Shown here: positions 25,051 to 63,773 of the stretch, in pieces | Position numbering within the stretch: position 1 is the stretch's first letter | How the letters are laid out: each line of letters begins with the position of its first letter | Source of the DNA: Deltaproteobacteria bacterium | Lineage (GTDB): Bacteria; Desulfobacterota; Desulfobaccia; Desulfobaccales; 0-14-0-80-60-11 | Assembly: GCA_016875015.1 (NCBI GenBank) | Contig: VGSJ01000005.1 | Span: 848 to 64,847 of the forward strand | Reading direction: 5' to 3' | Length of the DNA: 64,000 nucleotides | Notes under the pieces: generated by a model | What the model was told of the DNA's origin: nothing | Databases searched by the model: none | Seen by the model: the letters and a program-made list of their open reading frames with translations, nothing else | Made by a program: the position numbers and the translations under genes

Positions 25051-25335
25051 ATGACGGCATTGGTAGGCGGACTGGTCGCAGTGGCGCTGGGATTGATCGG
25101 CCTCGGCATGTGGTGGAAGCATTTCCTGGGCCTGCTGGCCGGGGGCCTTCCCTTAATACTTCTCCTGGGCGGCGCTCTGGCCGTATATTTAGGTTTTGAA
25201 GAAACCAAAGATAAATTCTTTAAAAAGCCCGAGACCCCGGCTTACGAACCTCCCAAGATGGCTGACGCCGAAGTGGAAAAATATAAGTCGGAAGTTGAGC
25301 GCCTGAAATCCGAAATCGAAGAACTGAAAAAATAG
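25051..25335 (+). CDS. Small membrane protein with a C-terminal coiled coil, hypothetical
   Basis: ATG 25051 follows AAGGAGG. Two TM helices, then EVEKYKSEVERLKSEIEELKK. Confidence 0.5.
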   Translation: MTALVGGLVAVALGLIGLGMWWKHFLGLLAGGLPLILLLGGALAVYLGFEETKDKFFKKPETPAYEPPKMADAEVEKYKSEVERLKSEIEELKK

Positions 25336-28743: not shown

Positions 28744-28831
28744 GCCTGGGTGGCGGAACGGGTAGACGCAAGGGACTTAAAATCCCTCGGGGTGTGACCC
28801 CGTGCCGGTTCGAGTCCGGCCCCAGGCACCA
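28744..28831 (+). tRNA. tRNA-Leu (anticodon TAA), integration target of the island
   Basis: 88 nt. Acceptor GCCTGGG/CCCAGGC, long variable arm, anticodon loop CTTAAAA (TAA at 28778-28780), T arm CCGGTTCGAGTCCGG, encoded CCA. Confidence 0.9.
28773..28831 (+). repeat. attL: 3' part of tRNA-Leu, direct repeat partner of 63371-63428
   Basis: GGACTTAAAATCCCTCGGGG(tgtga)CCCCGTGCCGGTTCGAGTCCGGCCCCAGGCACCA is identical to the right copy except for the variable-arm loop (tgtga versus ttcg). Confidence 0.85.
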
Positions 28832-28865
28832 ATAATATCAAGTAGTTATAATTATGGGATGATGA

Positions 28866-30074
28866 TTATTCCGGGGTTTGGTCAACGTTTTGGTCAACAC
28901 TTTGCAGATTTAGCTGGTTATCAAGCCACTCGGTATAGCGGGCCATGGCGCGATGGAGATCGTCTTCTGAAGGCGCCATGTAATGGACATCCATCCCGTG
29001 CAGGCTATGGCCTAAGATGATGTCCCGGTGAACCTGGTCAACACCGGCGTTGACCATGTTGGTCTTCACGGTACGGCGCAGGTCATGAAAGATCAGCCCA
29101 CCGGGCACATCCCGTCCATGGTCGATCCCAGCCCGCTGACAGGCCTTCTTGAAGGAATCCTTAACTCCTCCCACATTGATGATGGGCTTGCCCCGATAGG
29201 TCAGCACAAAATCATGGTGCAGAGCTTGGGGAAGTTCAGCCAACACCCGCCGCACATGGTGGTTAATGGGAATCACCTTGGGTCTGTTCTCCTTGGTGAA
29301 ATCGGCCGATAAACGGATGCACCATTTTTCCCGGTCAATATGACTCCACTTGAGGGAGCGCAACTCTCCCAGTCTCATGCCAGTATTGACGGCCAAGGTC
29401 AGGAAAGCCCGAAGGTGCGGCGGGGATATGTTTAAGAGACTCACATACTCTGCTATGCTCAACGTCCGCCGCCTGGCATTGGCTGCCCTCCTCAGTTTCC
29501 TCTTTAACGTTCTGAAAGCCTTGACTGTCCGACCATCCACCAGATCATTGTCGAAGGCCTTGGTAACCATGGTCTTGGCGAGGCTGATTTCCATGTCGAT
29601 GGAAGCCGGAGCCAGCCCTTCCTCTTCTCGCTTGTCTTGGTAAGTTTCCAGGTCCAGGGGTTTAAGGCTGCTGACAATACGATTGCCGAAGAACTTGTTG
29701 AAGCTCCCCAAAGCACATTTTACCCGTTTGAAGGAGGCTAATTTCTGTACCGATTTCAGGTTGAGATACCAGTCGATGAGTTCTGAGAAGGTCATGCGTT
29801 CCGCTGGTATTTTTTCCAAGATTCCAGGATTCTCATACTTTTGGGCTTTGCGCTTGCCTTCCGCGGCCTTGGCCTCTTCAATCCCGAGCGGCTGGCCATC
29901 CGGGTCATTCCCCACGTACTCCCGGCGCTGCTTTCCCCCAGGCAGGCGATAGGTCACCCAATACCTGACCTTCTTGGCCCTCTTGGCTGCCGTCAGATCA
30001 CTGCCGCAGGCGCATCTCCGGTTTTTAGTCGATTGCTTTTTATGACACCAGGGGCATTCTGCTAAAATCGCCAT
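28866..30074 (-). CDS. int: Tyrosine-type site-specific integrase
   Basis: 402 aa. Catalytic region RLGELRSLKWSHID ... LIFHDLRRTVKTNMVNAGV ... ILGHSLHGMDVHYMAP (R..HxxR..H..Y). It ends 35 nt from the tRNA. Confidence 0.9.
   Translation of the reverse strand: MAILAECPWCHKKQSTKNRRCACGSDLTAAKRAKKVRYWVTYRLPGGKQRREYVGNDPDGQPLGIEEAKAAEGKRKAQKYENPGILEKIPAERMTFSELIDWYLNLKSVQKLASFKRVKCALGSFNKFFGNRIVSSLKPLDLETYQDKREEEGLAPASIDMEISLAKTMVTKAFDNDLVDGRTVKAFRTLKRKLRRAANARRRTLSIAEYVSLLNISPPHLRAFLTLAVNTGMRLGELRSLKWSHIDREKWCIRLSADFTKENRPKVIPINHHVRRVLAELPQALHHDFVLTYRGKPIINVGGVKDSFKKACQRAGIDHGRDVPGGLIFHDLRRTVKTNMVNAGVDQVHRDIILGHSLHGMDVHYMAPSEDDLHRAMARYTEWLDNQLNLQSVDQNVDQTPE
28878..28898 (+). promoter_or_regulatory. 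Two TTGGTCAAC direct repeats (candidate integrase arm-type sites, left arm)
   Basis: Copies lie at 28878-28886 and 28890-28898, inside the integrase 3' end (encoding VDQNVDQ). The same 9-mer occurs three times at 63212-63240, and TTGGTCAACACT(T/A)TGCAGA is shared by both ends. Confidence 0.5.
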
Positions 30075-30222: not shown

Positions 30223-30254
30223 TGTCGCAAGTTGTGTCGCAAGATTGTCGTAAG
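30223..30254 (+). promoter_or_regulatory. Three helically phased direct repeats TGTCG(C/T)AAG (candidate operator)
   Basis: Copies at 30223-30231, 30235-30243 and 30246-30254 (spacing 12 and 11 bp), in the int / 3-gene-cassette intergenic region. Confidence 0.4.
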
Positions 30255-30435: not shown

Positions 30436-30464
30436 TTGACAACATATACTCAAATGAATATAAT
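30436..30464 (+). promoter_or_regulatory. Perfect consensus sigma-70 promoter for the 3-gene cassette
   Basis: TTGACA (30436-30441), 17 nt, TATAAT (30459-30464), about 50 nt upstream of the first start codon. Confidence 0.6.
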
Positions 30465-30516
30465 AAACACTCTCTGTAAGCAGGCTTACTGAATCAGTCT
30501 ACCTTTGGGCAAGTAC

Positions 30517-31200
30517 ATGGCGAAAGAGATAATAACTGAGGAATTATCGATAGTTGTGGTAGCTCGCAATCACAACCCCACCATTCTAAACCCTGATTTC
30601 CTCAAATATAATAAAATTGTTCCCACAGATTGGGAACTGGCTGGTAAGCCTATCTGTGCTGACCCGGTGGCCCAAGTAACCTTCAGCAACGGGGTCAACA
30701 TAGTCTCCCAATTTGATAAAGTTATTTTCTCTGAGGTTTTACGAGATAAGAAACCTGGAGACGTTGCCATTCCGGGGATCGCCCAAAAATATGTCGAGAC
30801 GCTCCCTCATGTAGATTACCGTGCCGTCGGTATAAATCCCAAAGGACATGTGGTTTTTACAGATGAGGCCGAGGTACAAAGATATATTGTTGATAATCTG
30901 CTAGCTCCCGGCCCTTGGCGGCAATTTGATGAGATATCCGTAAAGGCGGCCATTAAGTTTATTTATGCGCTCAAAGATTGCCAGCTTTCTCTCACCATCG
31001 AGGAAGGAAAACTCCAGGTTCAAGACAGTCTTTTACCGGTGGCGTTATTTGCCGCGAATTTTCACCATGACTTGGCTGGGGAATCCAAGGAAGAGAAATT
31101 AAAAAATCTGTCCAAGATACTCGATGAGTGGGAAAAAGACCTTAACTTATTCAGAGAAATGGTGAACGAGAGATTTCTTGGAATTTCGGGAAAACCATGA
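30517..31200 (+). CDS. Hypothetical protein A of the 3-gene cassette (beta-rich, apparent internal two-fold repeat)
   Basis: Track ORF 30505..31200 (TTG); ATG 30517 is the alternative used here. No motif recognised. The stop overlaps the next start (ATGA at 31197-31200). Confidence 0.6.
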   Translation: MAKEIITEELSIVVVARNHNPTILNPDFLKYNKIVPTDWELAGKPICADPVAQVTFSNGVNIVSQFDKVIFSEVLRDKKPGDVAIPGIAQKYVETLPHVDYRAVGINPKGHVVFTDEAEVQRYIVDNLLAPGPWRQFDEISVKAAIKFIYALKDCQLSLTIEEGKLQVQDSLLPVALFAANFHHDLAGESKEEKLKNLSKILDEWEKDLNLFREMVNERFLGISGKP

Positions 31201-31652
31201 ACAGCTCTAATCTTGCGGTAGACACCGGAACCCACGGCAACTATCTCGAACCCCTTGCCAGGGCCAAGGGCCAGGACGTCAGGAAGAACCCGGCCTACAG
31301 GAGTTCAAGGTATATCAGGTCCTCCTCTGCAAGTGGAGAGAGGCAGTGGCACATTTCCATCACCCATACTGACTCTTTATATGATGAAGCTTGCGGTCAA
31401 CCATACGTTCCGGAGACCCCGGAAAATATGTCGGCAAATGGGGAGACCACTGCGGAACTCACTACCGAAGATGCCTTCGCTCTCAGTTTGCAGCAATTCA
31501 TGCAGGGAAGTCACCTGGATGTGGAAGAAGATATTTGGGATATCGAGGTAAGGTTAATCCCGCCGCCTATGCCACAACGGCGTATCAAGGTCAAGTTCCG
31601 GTTCATCGGCAAGGAAACCCCGCGTATTTCATTCAACCCTGAACGAGACTGA
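31197..31652 (+). CDS. Hypothetical protein B of the 3-gene cassette
   Basis: 151 aa. S/R-rich N-terminal third, acidic middle, basic beta-like C-terminus (RRIKVKFRFIGKETPRISF). Translationally coupled to gene A. Confidence 0.55.
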   Translation: MNSSNLAVDTGTHGNYLEPLARAKGQDVRKNPAYRSSRYIRSSSASGERQWHISITHTDSLYDEACGQPYVPETPENMSANGETTAELTTEDAFALSLQQFMQGSHLDVEEDIWDIEVRLIPPPMPQRRIKVKFRFIGKETPRISFNPERD

Positions 31653-31659
31653 TGCTTTC

Positions 31660-32310
31660 ATGAGCCCGGGTGAATCTCCATTAATCTTGTCCGAATGGTA
31701 TGAACTGGTGTCTAGCGACCAGTTAATGCAGGGGGATATCTTTGAAGGCTGTCCGGTCTTCAGACCGCCGTCTGATCTGAAATGGCCCATTCAGGAGGAA
31801 AGTGAAGAGTTTGAATTTGCCTTGGGCACTCAAGATGTCATGGTCATGACCCAATCTTGCGATCTCCTGCCTGACCAGAAATCCGGTATGTGGCTGGTGA
31901 TCCTCTGTCCTATCTGGAAATTATCCGAAGCCTCCCGGGAAAACCAGATCTTAGCTTCAAGCTATGGCAAGGAAGAATGTCGCCGGGGGCATATGACCGG
32001 CTACCATATGATTGCCGGCTGCGAGCATGGTGATTGGAACCGAGAAATTTCCATCGTCAGTTTCCGTGAGGTTTGGAGCTTACCTTTGGATTTTGTCCGC
32101 CGTATGGCGGCCGCGTATGGACCGCGGCCCCGCCTGCGGCCCCCATATCGGGAGCATCTGGCTCAGGCCTTTGCGCGTTATTTCATGAGAGTCGGCCTAC
32201 CGGTGGATATCCCTGCCTTCAAGAGCAACAAAGCGGAGAGTGAGCTGCTAAAGAAACTCAACGCTCTGGATGCCGAGGCACGTCAGCGTCTTCTGTCGCA
32301 TTTCGCCTAA
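31660..32310 (+). CDS. Hypothetical protein C of the 3-gene cassette
   Basis: 216 aa, starting 7 nt after gene B. Notable motifs are LMQGDIFEGCPVF and DVMVMTQSCDLLPD. No family recognised. Confidence 0.6.
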   Translation: MSPGESPLILSEWYELVSSDQLMQGDIFEGCPVFRPPSDLKWPIQEESEEFEFALGTQDVMVMTQSCDLLPDQKSGMWLVILCPIWKLSEASRENQILASSYGKEECRRGHMTGYHMIAGCEHGDWNREISIVSFREVWSLPLDFVRRMAAAYGPRPRLRPPYREHLAQAFARYFMRVGLPVDIPAFKSNKAESELLKKLNALDAEARQRLLSHFA

Positions 32311-32599
32311 CTTTTTGCACTCTTTCCTTTCCCGGATATTTCCCTCATCCTCTGAGCCAATGGCCGATGACGGGGGCCAGCCTTGGCTGGTGGGAGTTCT
32401 GCGCTTCTATCCAGGGCGAGCGCCAGCCCCAGGTATAAAGTTGGTGCCAGGGGGCGGCGCTCGCTGGCGCCGGCCGTCGGCTACCTGGTCGGCAGCTGTC
32501 GCCCTCGGTCTTCAAGCACCGAGGGGACCAGGGGTGAATTTTTTTTAATCAGGTGGGTCCTTTTTACTTGGCCACAAGTGGTTCCTATTGCGTGGCCAT

Positions 32600-50233: not shown

Positions 50234-51606
50234 TCAACCCAAAGAACCAGGTTCGAAAAACGATTGACCTCGCCGAGTATGGTGAAATTACCATCCCTGC
50301 GGCTGATCTATCCTTTCTTTCGGAACAAAAATTTCAGACGGTTTGTGAAACTCTTAGTTCCCTGGTGAACATATCCTTTGGCTGGGGAGGGGGCCATCTC
50401 TCTATAAAAGCCGGATCGAATGTGGGGGTGATCCAAACACACGGCCTGCGGGTTCAAGTCCGTCCAGCCCTTTCGGTCAAAGAGATGGTGGTTCTCATTC
50501 GTTACGCCCTGTCCGGCAAGGTTCCACTTCAACATCTTAGGTCTTTTGCGGACGTTGATTGGGGAACCGGATTTGAAGATGTGCTCTGCATGATGCTGTG
50601 TGAAGAGTCCAGGGAGATCCTCAGGATAGGGCTTTCCTGCCGCTATGAGGAAAGACGTGAGCCTCTAACTTTTCTGAGGGGAAGGCCACTCTGGGAGAAG
50701 AACTTTCCCTGGCGCGGAGGCAAGACCAGGGAGTTGACTTGCCGCTATCACCGGCTCACCTATGACAATATAGATAACCGCTTGCTTCTCGTTGGCCTGA
50801 GGTCTGCCGGTCATCTCGCCACTTCTGAGGCCGTCAAAAGGAAAGTATTCCAGTTTGTAAAGACTATTGGCGATCTTGCTTCAGAGACCACTCCGGAGCC
50901 CGGGCAATTCGATCAGGCCGAACAAAGATACAACCGCTTAACCGAGCATTATCGCGCCGCCCATGGTCTGTGCAGAATGCTGATCTACAGCCTTCGTCCG
51001 GAATCACTTTATGAAAGTGGAAAACACCAAATATTTGGGATCGTTTTGGACATGGCCTGGCTTTTCGAGAAATTCATCGAACAGCTTATGGCAGAGACCT
51101 TGAAACCGGCCGGATTTAACATCGAATCCCAGGCGCCAGACCGGAAGGCCTTGCTCGATGCCGAAGGTTACCCCTATGTTTCGGTCCGCCCAGACCTGAT
51201 AATTTCTCAATCCCGGACAGTATGCGGAGTCATCGACGCCAAATATAAGCGATACTGGCCGACGGCCACAAACAGCTTTGCCCCTATGCGAAAAATAGCA
51301 AACGAAGACATCTACCAGCTCTTCTTCTATCAACAACGCCTACAAAGAAAGTTCAATTTACCAACCCCGCCCGTCGCTGTCATCGCCGCCCCCCTGCCCG
51401 AAGAAGATGAGCGGGGCGATCAGGCGGTTATTGCCGAAAGATTCAAACGAGTTGTTTGGCAGGCTGGAGCAGAGAAAGCTGGTGATGTGAGGCTCATATT
51501 AATCCCAATGACAAAATTCCTCAGGTTGATTATTCAAAGAGAAAAGCCAGGTGACATTGTGGAGAAAATCGGCCTTAATCGTATAAGGGATTTATTTCGT
51601 GATTAA
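50230..51606 (+). CDS. mcrC: McrC-like nuclease subunit
   Basis: ATGA overlap with mcrB. PD-(D/E)xK motif VRPDLIISQSRTVCGVIDAKYKRY near the C-terminus. Confidence 0.8.
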   Translation: MINPKNQVRKTIDLAEYGEITIPAADLSFLSEQKFQTVCETLSSLVNISFGWGGGHLSIKAGSNVGVIQTHGLRVQVRPALSVKEMVVLIRYALSGKVPLQHLRSFADVDWGTGFEDVLCMMLCEESREILRIGLSCRYEERREPLTFLRGRPLWEKNFPWRGGKTRELTCRYHRLTYDNIDNRLLLVGLRSAGHLATSEAVKRKVFQFVKTIGDLASETTPEPGQFDQAEQRYNRLTEHYRAAHGLCRMLIYSLRPESLYESGKHQIFGIVLDMAWLFEKFIEQLMAETLKPAGFNIESQAPDRKALLDAEGYPYVSVRPDLIISQSRTVCGVIDAKYKRYWPTATNSFAPMRKIANEDIYQLFFYQQRLQRKFNLPTPPVAVIAAPLPEEDERGDQAVIAERFKRVVWQAGAEKAGDVRLILIPMTKFLRLIIQREKPGDIVEKIGLNRIRDLFRD

Positions 51607-54043
51607 TCAGAGCAATAAGGATCAAATGACTCTTTTGCTAAAGGCCAGGCATGTGGCCTCATGGCAACTGCCAAAGCTTGCTGATAATAATACGTTGCCA
51701 TGTACCGCTACTTTGCCTGCTCTTCAAAGGGGAGCGGTATGGAAGCCTGCCCAAGTCGAGGCACTGTGGGATTCACTATTACGAGGTTTCCCAATAGGTG
51801 CCTTCCTGCTCGCCCCATACTATGAAGAACGCGGGAAACAAAGGTTTCGCTACCAGGAATCTATGGATTCACCACTCATTAATAATATCTCTGACTTTCA
51901 TCTCCTTGACGGCCAACAACGATGCAATGGAATCACGCTTGGATTCCTTAATTCATGGATAGCACTGGAGTACAATGTGCCAGCAGCCCTTTGGGTAGAT
52001 TTGATACCTCCTGACCCCCAGGATGAGCGTGGCTTTATTTTCCGTGTCGTGACAAGGTCTCATCCCTGGGGTTACCGACGCAACGACCCTACCCAGCGCT
52101 TGGAAGCGAAACATCGTCGAGCTGCTTTGTCTGCCTACCGGGATGCAAACAACAGTGCGAATTTGGGAAGCCAAGACTATCTCTGCATCGGTCAGGTGAA
52201 TCTTTCGCTGGTCTGGCCATGGGACGCCAAGGCTCCTGTGCCGTTCCCTTTGCTCATCGAAGCAGTCATTTCTGGGAACGACAAAGTTTGGGAACTATTG
52301 CAATCCAAGCTTGGAAACTTGTTGCCTTATTGGTCTGGTGCAGAAGACCTCCCATGCCTCAATGGAAATTGGAAGACTCGGGTTGAAAACCTTCTAAAGA
52401 ACCCAAGTCATCATATGGATCGTATTGTTGAAGGGATAAGGAGAATTGAGGGAACTGGCGAGGAGATCCCTTCAGTTCTTATTCCTGCACTAATCCTTCC
52501 TGAAGAAGTAGTCATAGAACCAATCGCTGTTCCAAGGGAAACAGACCAAGAGGCCATAGAAGATAACCCAGACGTCTCCCTGCAACATGATCCCATCGAG
52601 ACCTTATTTATTCGGGTAAACTCAGCTGGCACACCACTGGTCGGTGAAGAGCTGATCTACTCTATCTTAAAGTCCATATGGCCTGACGCCCAAGGTTTTG
52701 TGGAGTCATTAAGTACCCGTTTCATGACGCCCTCCCGGCTGGTTATGCTCCTCTCGAGACTTATCCTCGCCCGAACGGATACTGGACGTGAGAGGGTTCC
52801 TGCTCCTCCGGATGTGGGCCGGTTCCGGCGGCTGATCCACGGGCGTGATTCCCAATGTCCTGATTTTCGCCAGCGCCTAAAAGAATCCTTAGCAAGGGGG
52901 GAAGCGGAGACGCTATTCAACGTCGCACGGAACTTGCTGGTTGGGACCAAGGCGGATATCCAATATCTGCTTCCACCTGTATTGGCAGCAGATATGGCCC
53001 ACAGGACACCCCCGGAAGCTTTCTTTTTTCTTCTGTCATGGCTTGATCGAATGCAACAGGCAAGCCTCGATCCTCTGAGAATTAGTATAAGCGCACATAA
53101 AAGGATGATAGGAGCCTTAACCGCCCTTAGCTGGTTTGCGAATAAGGCGACCGATTGCCTCAACACATTATGGAGACGCTTAAATAGATTGGAACCGCAT
53201 AATCTTCCTAAATTTTTTTCTAAGGGCGTGCTTAAGTCCTGCATAAGATTGACTGATCGCCGAGAAATACAGCTCTTGCCTTTGGCTCCCCCGGATATTC
53301 TCCAAAGTGCTGTGGAGGAATCGATAACAGAAGCCAGAGGCTATCGGACTCCCAACAGCAATTTCTGGCGAGAATGGAGGTGGTGGGAGCGCTTCTCTGG
53401 GACTTTTAAGTATAAAGAGAGTATGAAAAGCTGGTACTTAGAAAATCTGGCATCCTGGAAGCGCGAAGAAGAAGGTCAAGAAATCATTCTCGATGCCTGG
53501 ACGAAATTGGCTGATGTTCTATGGGGAAAGCGAGAACTGGTCCTTTATGCCCAGCGCAAATATCTGGTGGACTGGTTTCCAAAGCATGATCCAGCAAGTC
53601 CAGATCAATTAGAAGACACAGATCGGCCATGGGACATGGACCACATACATCCCCAAAAATATATATATGGCAGATGGAATATACCGCTTATCATCAAGGA
53701 CTGGCATGGTTCGATTGGAAACTTACGCGCCTGGCCCCTGGAGGCAAATCGTGCTGATGGCGAAGAGCCCCCTTGTAAAAAGCTATCGCAACCAGCAGAG
53801 ATAAAAGAGCATTACGGCCTTACAACAAGCGAACAGGTTCATAAAGCAAGTTTCATTGGTAGTGAATGGCCTCAATGGAAAGAATCTACACCCGCCCAAG
53901 ACTGGTTCCATGCAAACTACCTCGCTAAAACCGAGGAGTATCCTTCATGTCGAGGGGCTTTGATTCAGGCTATCACAGCTAGATGGGTCGCACTCTACAG
54001 AGAGTGGTATGAAACGCTCTTGGTCGGAGATTTATTCGGCTAA
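51599..54043 (+). CDS. DUF262 + DUF1524 (GmrSD-like) type IV restriction-type nuclease
   Basis: GTG start overlapping mcrC by 8 nt. The N-terminus shows LPALQRGAVWKPAQVEALWDSLLRGFPIG and HLLDGQQR (DUF262/ParB-like). The C-terminus shows WDMDHIHPQKY..GNLRAWPLEANRADG (His-Me/DUF1524). Confidence 0.8.
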   Translation: MINQSNKDQMTLLLKARHVASWQLPKLADNNTLPCTATLPALQRGAVWKPAQVEALWDSLLRGFPIGAFLLAPYYEERGKQRFRYQESMDSPLINNISDFHLLDGQQRCNGITLGFLNSWIALEYNVPAALWVDLIPPDPQDERGFIFRVVTRSHPWGYRRNDPTQRLEAKHRRAALSAYRDANNSANLGSQDYLCIGQVNLSLVWPWDAKAPVPFPLLIEAVISGNDKVWELLQSKLGNLLPYWSGAEDLPCLNGNWKTRVENLLKNPSHHMDRIVEGIRRIEGTGEEIPSVLIPALILPEEVVIEPIAVPRETDQEAIEDNPDVSLQHDPIETLFIRVNSAGTPLVGEELIYSILKSIWPDAQGFVESLSTRFMTPSRLVMLLSRLILARTDTGRERVPAPPDVGRFRRLIHGRDSQCPDFRQRLKESLARGEAETLFNVARNLLVGTKADIQYLLPPVLAADMAHRTPPEAFFFLLSWLDRMQQASLDPLRISISAHKRMIGALTALSWFANKATDCLNTLWRRLNRLEPHNLPKFFSKGVLKSCIRLTDRREIQLLPLAPPDILQSAVEESITEARGYRTPNSNFWREWRWWERFSGTFKYKESMKSWYLENLASWKREEEGQEIILDAWTKLADVLWGKRELVLYAQRKYLVDWFPKHDPASPDQLEDTDRPWDMDHIHPQKYIYGRWNIPLIIKDWHGSIGNLRAWPLEANRADGEEPPCKKLSQPAEIKEHYGLTTSEQVHKASFIGSEWPQWKESTPAQDWFHANYLAKTEEYPSCRGALIQAITARWVALYREWYETLLVGDLFG

Positions 54044-54118
54044 GGATCGCGATCATTTTTCGGCAAAATCCAATATCCCGGTAATATGAATTAGAAGCCG
54101 ACTGGGAACCAACCAGGC

Positions 54119-55231
54119 ATGACAAATAATCGTGAGAGCTTCACGCACCTGATGGCTACCAGGCAGATTCGCCTCGAGCATGGCCACATCTTTGCCGTCG
54201 CCCCAGAGCCTCTGGGAACGGACTTTGACTTCGGCCGCATCGAGGGGATGATGTTGGGGCTGGCTATAGGGGATGCCTTGGGGAACACCACTGAATCATG
54301 GTTCCCCAGAGAACGCCGGGCCCGCTTCGGTGAAATCCGTGACTACCTCCCCAATCGTGAGACGGGCGAGAAAAAGGGCCTGCCCTCCGATGACACCCAA
54401 TTAGCCTTTTGGACGTTGGAGCAGATGCAGGAGGACCGCGGCTTTGTGCCGGAGCGGGTGGCGTCCAGGTTCTGCCGGGGCCGAATTTTTGGTATCGGCG
54501 GAACGGTCAGGGAGTTTATCCGCAATTACAAAAACGGTCTTCGCTGGTACCAATGCGGGCCTCAATCCGCAGGGAACGGCGCCTTGATGCGGATCGCTCC
54601 CATGTTAATCCCACACCTCAGGCCGACCACACCTGACCTTTGGATTGACACGGCTCTTTCTGCCATGATCACCCATAACGATTCCGGGTCGATTGCCGCC
54701 TGCCTGTCGTTCATCAACATCCTGTGGCATGTGCTCCGCATGGAGCAGCCACCAGATCCTGAATGGTGGCCCAGAACTTATATGGAGGTGGCCCGGGATT
54801 TGGAGCAGAGCACTTATAGGCCCAGAGGTGGAGCATACCCCAACTTCTGCGGCCATATTTGGCAATTTGTGGAAGAGACTGTAGAGGCCGGCTATGACCG
54901 CGGCCTCTCGGTCCTGGAAGCCGGTGAAATCTGGTACTCCGGCGCCTTCTTGTTGGAAACGGTGCCCTCGGTCCTGTTTATCCTTATGCGTCATGCCCAT
55001 GACCCCGAGGAGGCCATCATTCGGGCAGTGAATGACACCAAGGACAATGATACCATCGCCGCCATCGTGGGGGCTGCGGTGGGTGCCTTGCATGGCCGGC
55101 AGAAAATTCCTGAGCCCTGGCTTAAGAATCTGGCGGGGCGGACTGCGGAACAAGATGACGGCAGGATTTATGAACTGCTGAAGGCGGCCCAAAGCTTCTG
55201 GGGGCAGAGAGAGCACCTTTCGGGAATATAG
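54119..55231 (+). CDS. ADP-ribosylglycohydrolase family protein 1
   Basis: [54 protein letters not shown]. Confidence 0.8.
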
Positions 55232-56163
55232 TGATGGAAACAGTTGCCCGTTATCGGGGGAGCCTCCTGGGGTTGGCCGTAGGTGATGCCCTGGGTACCG
55301 CGTTGGAATTTCGAGTGCCCGGCACGTTCGCACCCATCGAAGACATGATCGGCGGGGGCCCGTTTCGGCTAAAGCCTGGTGAATGGACCGATGACACCTC
55401 CATGGCCCTCTGCCTGGCAGAGAGTTTAATCGATCGGCGGGGCTTTGACCCTGCCGACCAGATGGCCCGGTACCTTCAGTGGTATCGCCAGGGTTATCTG
55501 AGCAGCACTGGCGAATGTTTCGACATTGGCAATACAGTGAGATCCGCCCTGCTTTCCTATGAACGGACGGGTCAACCCTATGCCGGGTCCACCAACCCCA
55601 GGTCCGCGGGCAACGGCAGCACCATGCGTCTCGCGCCTGTGCCTCTGTTTTTCGCCCGACATCCCGAGCAAGCCATCCACCTATCCGGGGAAAGTTCCCG
55701 CACCACGCATGGCCTGCCGGTTTGCGTTGATGCTTGCAGGTATTTGGGAGCGTTGCTGGTGGGTGCGGTCAACGGGGCCGACAAAGAAGAACTCTTGAAG
55801 GAGCGCTTCAGCCCCGTCTCCGGCTACTGGGAGAGATATCCGCTGTCTCCCCCCATTGACGAGATTGCCCTGGGGTCCTTCAAGCGCCGCCAGCCGCCGG
55901 AAATCCATGGAAGCGGTTATGTGGTCCGTTCTCTGGAGGCGGCGCTTTGGGCTTTATACCACGGGACATCCTTTCGAGAGGGCTGCCTCATGGCGGTCAA
56001 TCTAGGTGATGACGCCGACACCACCGGAGCAGTCTATGGTCAGTTGGCGGGGGCTTTACTCGGGGAGGAAGGTATCCCGGTAAGATGGAGAATAAAACTC
56101 GCCAACCATGATCTTATTTGTTCCCTGGCTGAGGAAGTTTATGCTTTGAGCTTGAGTACTTGA
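55231..56163 (+). CDS. ADP-ribosylglycohydrolase family protein 2 (DraG-like)
   Basis: [59 protein letters not shown]. The start (GTG 55231 or ATG 55234) abuts the ARH1 stop. Confidence 0.85.
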
Positions 56164-63240: not shown

Positions 63241-63370
63241 ACTATGCAGAAAATAACCCCCATTTTCCTGCATTTTCCCGCCTTGGCCCAAAATAGCGAT
63301 TGACAGGTTAACTGGTTGTATTTACAATATCTCTTGGCGTCCCGAATTGCCCCAAAAAATCCCGATTTAA

Positions 63371-63428
63371 GGACTTAAAATCCCTCGGGGTTCGCCCCGT
63401 GCCGGTTCGAGTCCGGCCCCAGGCACCA
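63371..63428 (+). repeat. attR: displaced 3' fragment of tRNA-Leu
   Basis: A 58-nt copy of the tRNA from the anticodon stem to CCA with no 5' half. The flanking AATATCAA is also shared with the left copy. Confidence 0.85.
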
Positions 63429-63773
63429 AATATCAAAAAGGTCTTCTTGCGCAGAAGAGAGGGCCTTTTCTCTTTGGTAGGCCAGGTTGGTAACTGCAAG
63501 TAAATCAAAGGGTTTTCGGTAAACAGGAGAGAGCCTGCCGTCCTTCCAGGAGGAGTTTGAGAACACAAAATTGAGCAAACGGCGCTTTTCGAGCATATCC
63601 TGTTTTTCATAAAGAATAACAGCATGTTGTGCCAGTTCGAGAATGCGCCCGCCCTCTTCCAGGTAAATATGGTTGGCATTTTCGTGTTTCTCAATTTTGA
63701 TGGTTCCGTAAAAAGTAAGAATTTTCAAAAAACCGGGTTGTAACTCATTGATTTTATTGAAAGCGAATTCCAT
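63375..63773 (-). pseudogene. C-terminal fragment of a recombinase-family (large serine recombinase-like) gene running into the tRNA fragment
   Basis: ILELAQHAVILYEKQDMLEKRRLLNFVFSNSSWKDGRLSPVYRKPFDLLA resembles the conserved C-terminal region of large serine recombinases (from memory). The last ~18 codons are translated tRNA DNA. A TGA lies in frame 36 nt upstream of ATG 63773, and the upstream open reading frame is a different one. Confidence 0.4.

Follow-up and report, generated by a model that had tools for sequence, protein, structure and literature searches.

Toxin-antitoxin (TA) systems differ widely in the nature and number of their components. ToxIN/CptIN systems confer phage defense via an RNase with a MazF-like fold, and the antitoxin of such type III systems is a repetitive RNA. 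In the tripartite toxin-antitoxin-chaperone (TAC) systems, HigBA, MqsRA, or HicAB pairs are accompanied by a SecB-like chaperone that is common to several TA families, and the antitoxins bear an extra segment besides their toxin-binding part (PMC5105189, PMC6377645). In Panacea, a conserved module (PanA/DUF4065) is paired with many unrelated toxin families (PMC8832971, PMC10440598), and in some PanA antitoxins this conserved domain is accessory while a separate segment neutralizes the toxin (PMC10440598). The NetFlax survey covers, by design, two-gene systems only (PMC10440598), so that a class of three-gene systems would escape it. Here, we analyze a cassette of three genes, termed A, B, and C, at positions 30,436 to 32,310 of a 64,000-nucleotide (nt) stretch of contig VGSJ01000005.1 from the metagenome-assembled genome of an uncultured Deltaproteobacteria bacterium; this whole stretch is referred to as the window.

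We conclude that the three genes are real and that the cassette belongs to a large family of TA-like cassettes of three genes that is present in bacteria and archaea and lacks annotation; here it is carried as cargo on a 34.6-kb defense island integrated at a tRNA-Leu gene. On balance, we favor reading the trio as a tripartite TA-like module in which C is the toxin, B the antitoxin, and A a promiscuous accessory partner. Among known systems, it would come nearest to a type II TA or abortive-infection module to which a third component has been added, and its closest analogues are TAC systems and Panacea-type antitoxins. The cassette resembles TAC systems in being tripartite and in that A-family genes serve pairs of different toxin families. 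It differs from them in three respects: (i) A is not SecB-like, with no SecB match in Pfam and SecB outside the top 50 fold matches, (ii) the accessory gene is the first of the operon, and (iii) the extra segment of B is N-terminal and not conserved between cassette types. The division of labor seen in Panacea is the one that we propose for A and the C-terminal motif of B, and A-B fusions exist, but Pfam detects no DUF4065 in A or B and A is usually a separate polypeptide.

Operon anatomy and the B-C pair

The features of the cassette and its surroundings are compiled in Table 1. An initial annotation, made from the sequence alone, had described a perfect consensus promoter that stands out in the window, followed by three open reading frames (ORFs) joined by an ATGA overlap and a 7-nt gap; our coordinates and lengths agree with that description. 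The promoter is the only perfect TTGACA-17-TATAAT match in the window and lies 52 nt from the start codon of A. Consensus promoters with at most one mismatch number 2 in the window, compared to 0.10 expected from dinucleotide-preserving shuffles, and none of 100 shuffles reached 2. Upstream of other cassettes, promoters with a score of at least 10 were present in 9 of 78 cases versus 15 of 415 random windows, which is a modest excess. Alignments of homologues support the ATG start of A over the alternative TTG. The GC content of the three genes (A, 0.44; B, 0.52; C, 0.53) is below that of the left-hand host genes (0.66 to 0.67), as had been noticed initially, and the adjoining defense genes are at 0.57 to 0.59. 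All three proteins are acidic overall.

Table 1. Coordinates of the cassette and of associated features in the window
Feature	Position	Strand	Details
tRNA-Leu(UAA), integration site (attL)	28744..28831	+	
Tyrosine integrase gene	28866..30074	-	Phage_integrase, E 4.6e-22; divergent from the cassette, at the left end of the island
Sigma-70-type promoter TTGACA-N17-TATAAT	30436..30464	+	-35 box at 30436-30441, -10 box at 30459-30464; 12/12 matches
Imperfect inverted repeat TCTGTAAGC-ag-GCTTACTGA	30473..30492		Core GTAAGC/GCTTAC perfect; just 3' of the -10 box
Gene A	30517..31200	+	ATG start, 227 amino acids (aa); 231 aa from the alternative TTG at 30505
Gene B	31197..31652	+	151 aa; ATGA overlap with A
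Conserved C-terminal motif of B	31518..31643	+	Residues 108-149, DVEEDIWDIEVRLIPPPMPQRRIKVKFRFIGKETPRISFNPE; from alignment
Gene C	31660..32310	+	216 aa; 7-nt gap after B
GC-rich structured intergenic region	32311..32560		T-run at its end; separates C from the minus-strand 221-aa gene, which converges on it
Two genes, 221 aa and 328 aa	32600-34305	-	No match in Pfam or PADLOC for either
Druantia/DISARM-like operon	34295-46562		Matches to DrmMI/type IIG methyltransferase, DpdE/DrmD-like SNF2 helicase, and DruE
Partial copy of the tRNA-Leu 3' end (attR)	63371..63429	+	Exact repeats of 21 and 35 nt with one indel between them

Two noncoding elements flank the genes. The inverted repeat next to the promoter could be a candidate operator for autoregulation; the fold of the leader RNA is ordinary compared to shuffles (z = +0.3), which makes a role at the DNA level likelier than an RNA hairpin. 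Downstream of C, the 250 nt of the structured intergenic region fold far better than shuffles (z = -2.9) and probably constitute a bidirectional terminator region. This region is absent from the list of a simple terminator scan, and Rfam gave no match in the sequence analyzed, this region included.

The three proteins had been annotated initially as carrying no assignable motif, and searches against Pfam, NCBIfam, PADLOC-DB v2.0.0, and PHROGs bear this out, since no match was obtained at E ≤ 0.1, nor, in PADLOC-DB, even at E ≤ 1. A housekeeping, partition, or replication function, which the initial annotation had named as speaking against its own proposal, did not emerge: these library scans produced no match to partition, replication, excisionase, repressor, or housekeeping families. 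Similarly, for 15 representatives of A-position (A'), B, and C proteins from five other loci, no PADLOC model stood out as attributable to a cassette protein, and the first of the set matched no family. The earlier view of the cassette as the least explainable block of the window no longer applies to its architecture, which follows TA logic. The lack of database annotation is all that could suggest that the ORFs are chance frames or decayed remnants, and conservation refutes this idea, to which we assign a negligible probability. The A family amounts to no fewer than 1,691 clusters at 50% identity (E ≤ 1e-3) and the C family to no fewer than 2,950 at 90% identity, every one of the latter annotated as hypothetical; the structural models of A and C are of high confidence, gene order and coupling are conserved, and cassettes identical to that of the window are found on four other metagenome contigs.

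To define the conserved unit, we analyzed 86 loci (80 from a scan of species genomes, 5 from look-ups, and the window) using hidden Markov models (HMMs) built in this study. The C HMM matched in all 86 loci, and the B-motif HMM matched the gene directly upstream of C in 79. In five further loci (L008, L014, L052, L064, and L079), divergent B genes upstream of C were recognized by eye, and in the remaining two (L036 and L056), the gene upstream of C encodes a fusion of a TIGR04255 protein with a divergent B-like tail. A B-type sequence thus directly precedes C in 86/86 loci, making B-C an obligate pair. The median gaps are -4 nt between A and B (ATGA) and 0 to 7 nt between B and C; B and C are two small, co-directional, tightly coupled, and co-occurring genes, as expected of a type II TA system.

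B is conserved in an unusual manner. A search with full-length B detected only 2 homologues, and the only part common to the B family is a C-terminal motif of approximately 40 aa, ..DWD.....PPP....G.I.V.L.Y.GR.KP.P..DPW, whereas the N-terminal part is variable, unconserved, and partly of low complexity; the initial remark that B is part low-complexity was thus correct, with conservation confined to the last ~40 residues. In a relative (L183), B shares 48% and C 67% identity with the window proteins, showing that B evolves faster than C. Antitoxins usually combine a short conserved binding segment with a fast-evolving remainder. With its variable region and short conserved C-terminal segment, B looks like an antitoxin, and we propose that residues 108-149 may be the segment that binds and neutralizes C. 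The B motif also ends larger proteins encoded directly upstream of C, namely, a TPR protein of 324 aa (L031, 8991-9965) and the product of an ORF of 471 aa that combines a papain-like peptidase C1 domain and a GNAT domain (L034, 8558-9973). In addition, three poribacterial loci (L022, 12335-13957; L032, 11059-12764; L075, 11155-12783) contain an additional small ORF whose product has a near-identical B motif, directly upstream of a gene for a protein with Schlafen AlbA_2, HATPase_c_4, and DIP2311-like_C domains. The B motif may therefore also partner another downstream family.

Protein C and its resemblance to toxins

A pattern scan with one genome per GTDB species revealed relatives of C in at least 590 species genomes. 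The corresponding loci belong to bacteria (Poribacteria, Planctomycetota, Cyanobacteria, Acidobacteriota, Armatimonadota, and Verrucomicrobiota) and archaea (Methanosarcinales, Methanoperedens, Aenigmatarchaeota, Syntrophoarchaeum, and one Asgard metagenome-assembled genome). This distribution is patchy, spanning many phyla and the archaea in unrelated neighborhoods, which is the patchy, mobile pattern typical of type II TA systems. In one locus (L014, 3439-3984), the C homologue is broken by an in-frame TAA and the B-like gene upstream is intact; this is either a pseudogenized toxin or an assembly error.

The 216-aa protein contains LMQGDIFEGCPVF and VMVMTQSCDLLPD, the two sequences that had been highlighted initially. 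Across the family, residues Q65, C67, D68, E105, R108, G110, L141, P142, and P162 are invariant, the QGD, GYH, and SLP motifs and H116 are nearly so, and the C-terminal part contains a strongly conserved basic helix-loop, PYREHLAQAFARYFMRVGLPVDIP. In cluster c9 (e.g., L113 and L124), which is a divergent branch of the C superfamily, the motifs QGD, QxCDL, and ..F.R...P. are retained. The AlphaFold model of C (predicted local distance difference test [pLDDT], 88; predicted template modeling [pTM] score, 0.76) consists of a beta barrel at residues ~14 to 160, followed by helices. In a Foldseek search of the PDB, MazF-mt3, CptN, and MazF-mt1 fill 9 of the 10 top places, and CcdB ranks lower. The best match had an E value of 0.044, a probability of 0.99, and a TM-score of 0.63 normalized to the target (up to 0.64); no match reached an E value of 0.001 or better, and a search against viral structures returned nothing informative. 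C may thus have a MazF/CcdB-like fold, for which support is moderate.

The cassette can be compared with the type II systems MazEF, Kis-Kid, and CcdAB. As in these systems, a fast-evolving partner is encoded upstream of a protein of ~110 to 220 aa; the predicted structural neighbors of C include MazF-mt3, MazF-mt1, and CcdB; the strand pattern of C appears similar by eye (GDI..., with a hydrophobic strand, a loop, and a hydrophobic strand containing a proline); and A-led sister cassettes end in a true MazF/PemK. On the other hand, C has no sequence or profile similarity to these toxins, is twice as large, and possesses a conserved helical C-terminal extension and residues of its own (QxCD, E..RRG, and GYH), B lacks an AbrB, ribbon-helix-helix, or other DNA-binding domain, and there is a third gene in the cassette. 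ToxIN/CptIN are brought to mind by CptN (4rmo), the second-best structural match to C, but the element upstream of C codes for a protein, a tandem repeat array was not noted there, and Rfam was empty.

Interchangeable first genes and A-led sister cassettes

The gene preceding B-C varies. It encodes a TIGR04255 protein in 45 of the 86 loci, with matches to the NCBIfam model at E values of 1e-22 to 1e-43, and an A-class protein in 8; in the other 33 loci, the first gene is absent or belongs to neither class, and some of these loci consist of B and C only, with topA, fabG, or other unrelated genes alongside. The median length of B is 139 to 158 aa where a first gene is present, compared to 111 aa where it is absent. 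The initial annotation had suggested that the trio be sought as a syntenic unit elsewhere. The trio of all three families indeed recurs in 7 other loci, and the same layout with a TIGR04255 gene in first place is found in 45 more of the 86, but the conserved unit is the B-C pair. First genes are also fused to B: an A-B protein of 365 aa precedes C in L095, and the TIGR04255-B fusions mentioned above were found in L036 and L056.

A carries the conserved motifs NHNPTILNPDFL and YRAVGINPKG. AlphaFold models it (pLDDT, 94) as an alpha/beta sandwich of two lobes, with weak matches to ligand-binding or enzyme folds, namely, S-adenosylmethionine decarboxylase (AdoMetDC)/prozyme, CYTH, and START/Bet v1; the A family profile has no meaningful match among PDB sequences. 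The description of A as a duplicated beta-rich module is borne out in part: there are two lobes and the best PDB match is the internally duplicated AdoMetDC fold, but the fold is an alpha/beta sandwich and the TM-score is low. TIGR04255 proteins ("sporadTIGR04255") are likewise encoded first, are coupled to B by the same ATGA-type overlap, and are of comparable size (250 to 280 aa versus 227 aa for A), and A does not match the NCBIfam TIGR04255 model at E ≤ 1. TIGR04255 has no assigned function and is not mentioned in the literature searched.

To obtain the view from the A side, we surveyed 80 metagenome loci containing A, counting third-gene families where the downstream sequence sufficed. 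A usually heads a tight run with two further genes on the same strand, and this downstream pair differs between loci. (i) The most frequent third gene, found in 22 loci behind a middle gene of 177 to 297 aa, encodes a HEPN protein of ~135 aa, whose profile matches HEPN structures in the PDB (9xbd, E 2.9e-8; Retron-Kva2 HEPN, E 7e-4; AF0298, E 1.7e-3). (ii) Of the 52 loci whose downstream sequence amounts to 1,150 nt or more, 8 have the C family in third place, the middle gene coding for B or another protein. (iii) Four loci have a canonical MazF/PemK (hhalign against MazF/Kid/EndoA, probability of 94.8 and E 5e-8) behind a middle protein of ~145 aa. (iv) In seven loci (L136 to L138, L143, L145, L160, and L162), the third protein belongs to a family of ~130 aa without assignment, and the middle protein has 186 to 248 aa. 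(v) A DUF7689 protein follows a middle protein of 230 aa in L093/L094, which are the same region in two assemblies. In searches of the PDB using phmmer, single second- or third-gene sequences resembling MazF, RES, HEPN, or DUF2384 had no success; the MazF and HEPN third genes were subsequently confirmed by profile methods. Within the limits of the literature searched, we found no description of a tripartite HEPN/MazF three-gene class.

Some of the remaining third genes merit a comment. The unassigned family (~121 to 139 aa) carries the motifs ..AAF.d..lSV.. and N(P/D)AHA and is a candidate new toxin family; the third genes of L151/L156 (c14) and of L174 look related to it. By eye only, the L149 pair (296 aa and 170 aa) resembles a DUF2384/MbcA-type antitoxin C terminus with a RES-domain toxin, and the 210-aa third protein of L112/L180 resembles a PIN domain. 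As phmmer searches of the PDB and Pfam annotation gave nothing for the L149 and L112 candidates, RES, DUF2384, and PIN were not used as evidence.

In these cassettes, domains established as toxins or effectors fill the third slot, a cassette-specific protein fills the second, and A is shared; position and architecture therefore assign C as the predicted toxin and B as the predicted antitoxin. A different assignment, which we consider unlikely, is that C is a nontoxic cysteine-dependent enzyme or binding protein, B its substrate, propeptide, or adaptor, and A a ligand-binding subunit. The invariant polar set of C (Q65, C67, D68, E105, and R108, with the near-invariant H116), its dissimilarity to the MazF family in sequence and profile, its acidic nature, and the enzymes and ligand binders among the fold neighbors of A would all be compatible with such a function. 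Against it stand the A-family genes in the same position before bona fide HEPN and MazF toxins, the sporadic distribution in unrelated contexts with shuffled partners, the nonsense mutation in the L014 C gene, and the fact that metabolic genes are not consistently linked with the cassette.

The tripartite TA reading must also be weighed against a number of results that do not favor it. (i) The match of C to the MazF/CcdB fold is weak (Foldseek E values of 0.04 to 0.3; TM-score of ~0.36 normalized to the query), and the C family profile had no match among PDB sequences at E ≤ 10. Membership of C in MazF/PemK (PF02452) was rejected, with an E value of 0.11 in hhalign against MazF/Kid/EndoA and no Pfam match at E ≤ 1; as the hhalign result is insignificant, we have not filed C as a member of the MazF family. 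(ii) Unlike many RNase toxins, C is acidic, with an isoelectric point of 5.5. (iii) tblastn found no relatives of C among 72,556 plasmids and 50,697 phages, and in IMG/VR only 7 of 2.9 million viral contigs contain one. (iv) Neither Pfam nor NCBIfam recognizes a DNA-binding domain in A or B, so that classical type II autoregulation is unsupported. (v) No A-binding motif shared by the middle proteins of different cassette types was found. (vi) Membership of A in TIGR04255 was likewise rejected (hhalign in three settings, E values of 0.15 to 0.17, not significant), and A is therefore treated as a positional analogue and not as a member. (vii) The genomic neighbors described below, 110 flanking genes in 41 loci, come without a matched genomic control.

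Proposed mechanism, island, and possible biological role

Under the tripartite TA reading, the strong promoter would ensure constitutive co-expression of A, B, and C, and the ATGA coupling together with the 7-nt gap would fix their stoichiometry. C would be the effector or toxin and would represent a new family, characterized by a barrel like that of MazF/CcdB, a Q-x-C-D loop that is invariant, and a basic helix conserved at the C terminus. B would be its cognate, fast-evolving antitoxin, binding and neutralizing C through its C-terminal ~40 residues, and the variable N-terminal part of B would provide the link to the first-gene product. A would be a promiscuous accessory partner (a sensor, stabilizer, or regulator) that controls the silencing of C by B. 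Once A or B is perturbed, by phage infection or by loss of the island, C would be freed and would arrest the cell, the outcome being abortive infection and/or post-segregational stabilization of the island.

More tentatively, we suggest that A-class and, in parallel, TIGR04255 proteins may be the hitherto undescribed, hyper-promiscuous lead of a combinatorial accessory-antitoxin-toxin network of bacteria and archaea, in which the accessory protein senses infection or stress and thereby licenses toxin release, and in which HEPN, MazF/PemK, the QxCD-type C, or one of several unassigned families serves as the toxin; C would then represent a toxin superfamily of its own, with a barrel resembling that of MazF but another active site.

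The initial annotation had put forward a novel defense or exclusion system. This remains a candidate reading, and an addiction role that stabilizes the island fits the same data. In its more specific form, the architecture would be the same and its main role would be anti-phage abortive infection, with A or TIGR04255 sensing a phage product whose binding releases B from C; we regard this as possible but short of probable. It is consistent with the location of the cassette in a defense island and with the genes found next to other cassettes. Among the 110 neighbors, PADLOC matches comprise prokaryotic Argonautes (pAgo; 4), SIR2-type Argonaute partners (4), mad2 (5), restriction-modification (RM) methylases (3 + 3), and AriA (3), and Pfam matches comprise Schlafen/AlbA_2 (7), AAA_21 of the AbiEii type (3), and Fic (2). 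The L095 cassette with the A-B fusion adjoins a type III RM system, L183 a gene with a Lon_C domain, and L180 HEPN_AbiV. Furthermore, one partner is diversified and the effector pair conserved, a pattern that typifies sensor-effector immunity. These neighbors suggest an association with defense islands, but the counts lack a matched control. Moreover, L001 and L093 lie among housekeeping genes (citrate synthase and a ribosomal protein cluster, respectively), the third of the loci that have no A- or TIGR04255-class first gene still keep B-C, and no PADLOC v2 model matched the cassette. Two groups of neighbor matches call for caution: the five mad2 matches were attributed, unchecked, to neighboring Schlafen/AlbA_2 proteins, and, as regards the four pAgo matches, phmmer searches of the PDB using three candidate pAgo neighbors yielded no Argonaute match (two empty and one DsbD-like).

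The limits of the island in the window are given by tRNA-Leu(UAA): its 3' ~60 nt (28773-28832) recur at 63371-63429, 34.6 kb downstream, which places the island at ~28773-63429. From the left, it contains the integrase gene, the trio, two minus-strand genes without family, the Druantia/DISARM-like operon, McrBC genes, and a GmrSD_N block, as well as a gene for a primase-like CHC2/Toprim protein. The initial placement of the cassette between an integrase and a defense operon within a defense island is thus confirmed by matches to Phage_integrase, DrmMI, DpdE/DrmD, DruE, McrBC, and GmrSD_N. Of the four contigs with identical cassettes, three show the same integrase-trio-methylase order and the fourth, which is short, contains the trio alone.

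This position brings up a further alternative, which we judge improbable, and distinctly more so than the enzyme assignment of C: the trio could be a maintenance or regulatory module of the integrative element, acting in excision control, replication, or partition. It immediately adjoins the integrase gene in divergent orientation, the spacer between the integrase gene and A contains three direct repeats of TGTCGCAAG, and the island carries the primase-like gene. However, the proteins match no partition, replication, excisionase, or repressor family, no DNA-binding domain was detected, and in annotated loci the cassette is found among unrelated genes and not beside an integrase. The repeats of the spacer (TGTCGCAAG/TGTCGTAAG, 30223-30254, 11 to 12 nt apart) may be arm-type binding sites of a recombinase or excisionase.

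Several further features of the window were noted. The sole other near-consensus promoter, TTGACA-N17-TACAAT (63300-63328, 1 mismatch), is located 43 nt upstream of the partial tRNA copy at attR and is directed outward from the island. Of the two minus-strand genes, the one of 328 aa shares an overlap with the end of the gene for the DrmMI-like methylase, and both this gene and that of 221 aa may be unrecognized parts of the Druantia/DISARM-like operon. Just 3' of McrBC, the region 51599-56163 encodes a GmrSD_N protein (814 aa) followed by tandem ADP-ribosylglycohydrolases (370 and 310 aa), an unusual pairing. In the host flank, at ~25051-25335, a 94-aa gene has a Pfam match to MamI (annotation of the identical contig L096, 2567-2851), and the host may be a magnetotactic deltaproteobacterium.

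If the tripartite TA reading is correct, three sizeable families (A, the B motif, and C) that have no Pfam or defense-database model would gain a working hypothesis, and the long-orphaned TIGR04255 would gain its first functional context. It would also expose a blind spot, since pipelines for the discovery of two-gene TA systems exclude three-gene modules by design. At ~2 kb and with its own consensus promoter, the cassette is directly testable, and the family is present in lineages in which few defense or TA systems have been tested, including Poribacteria, Planctomycetota, cyanobacteria, and methanogenic or Asgard archaea.

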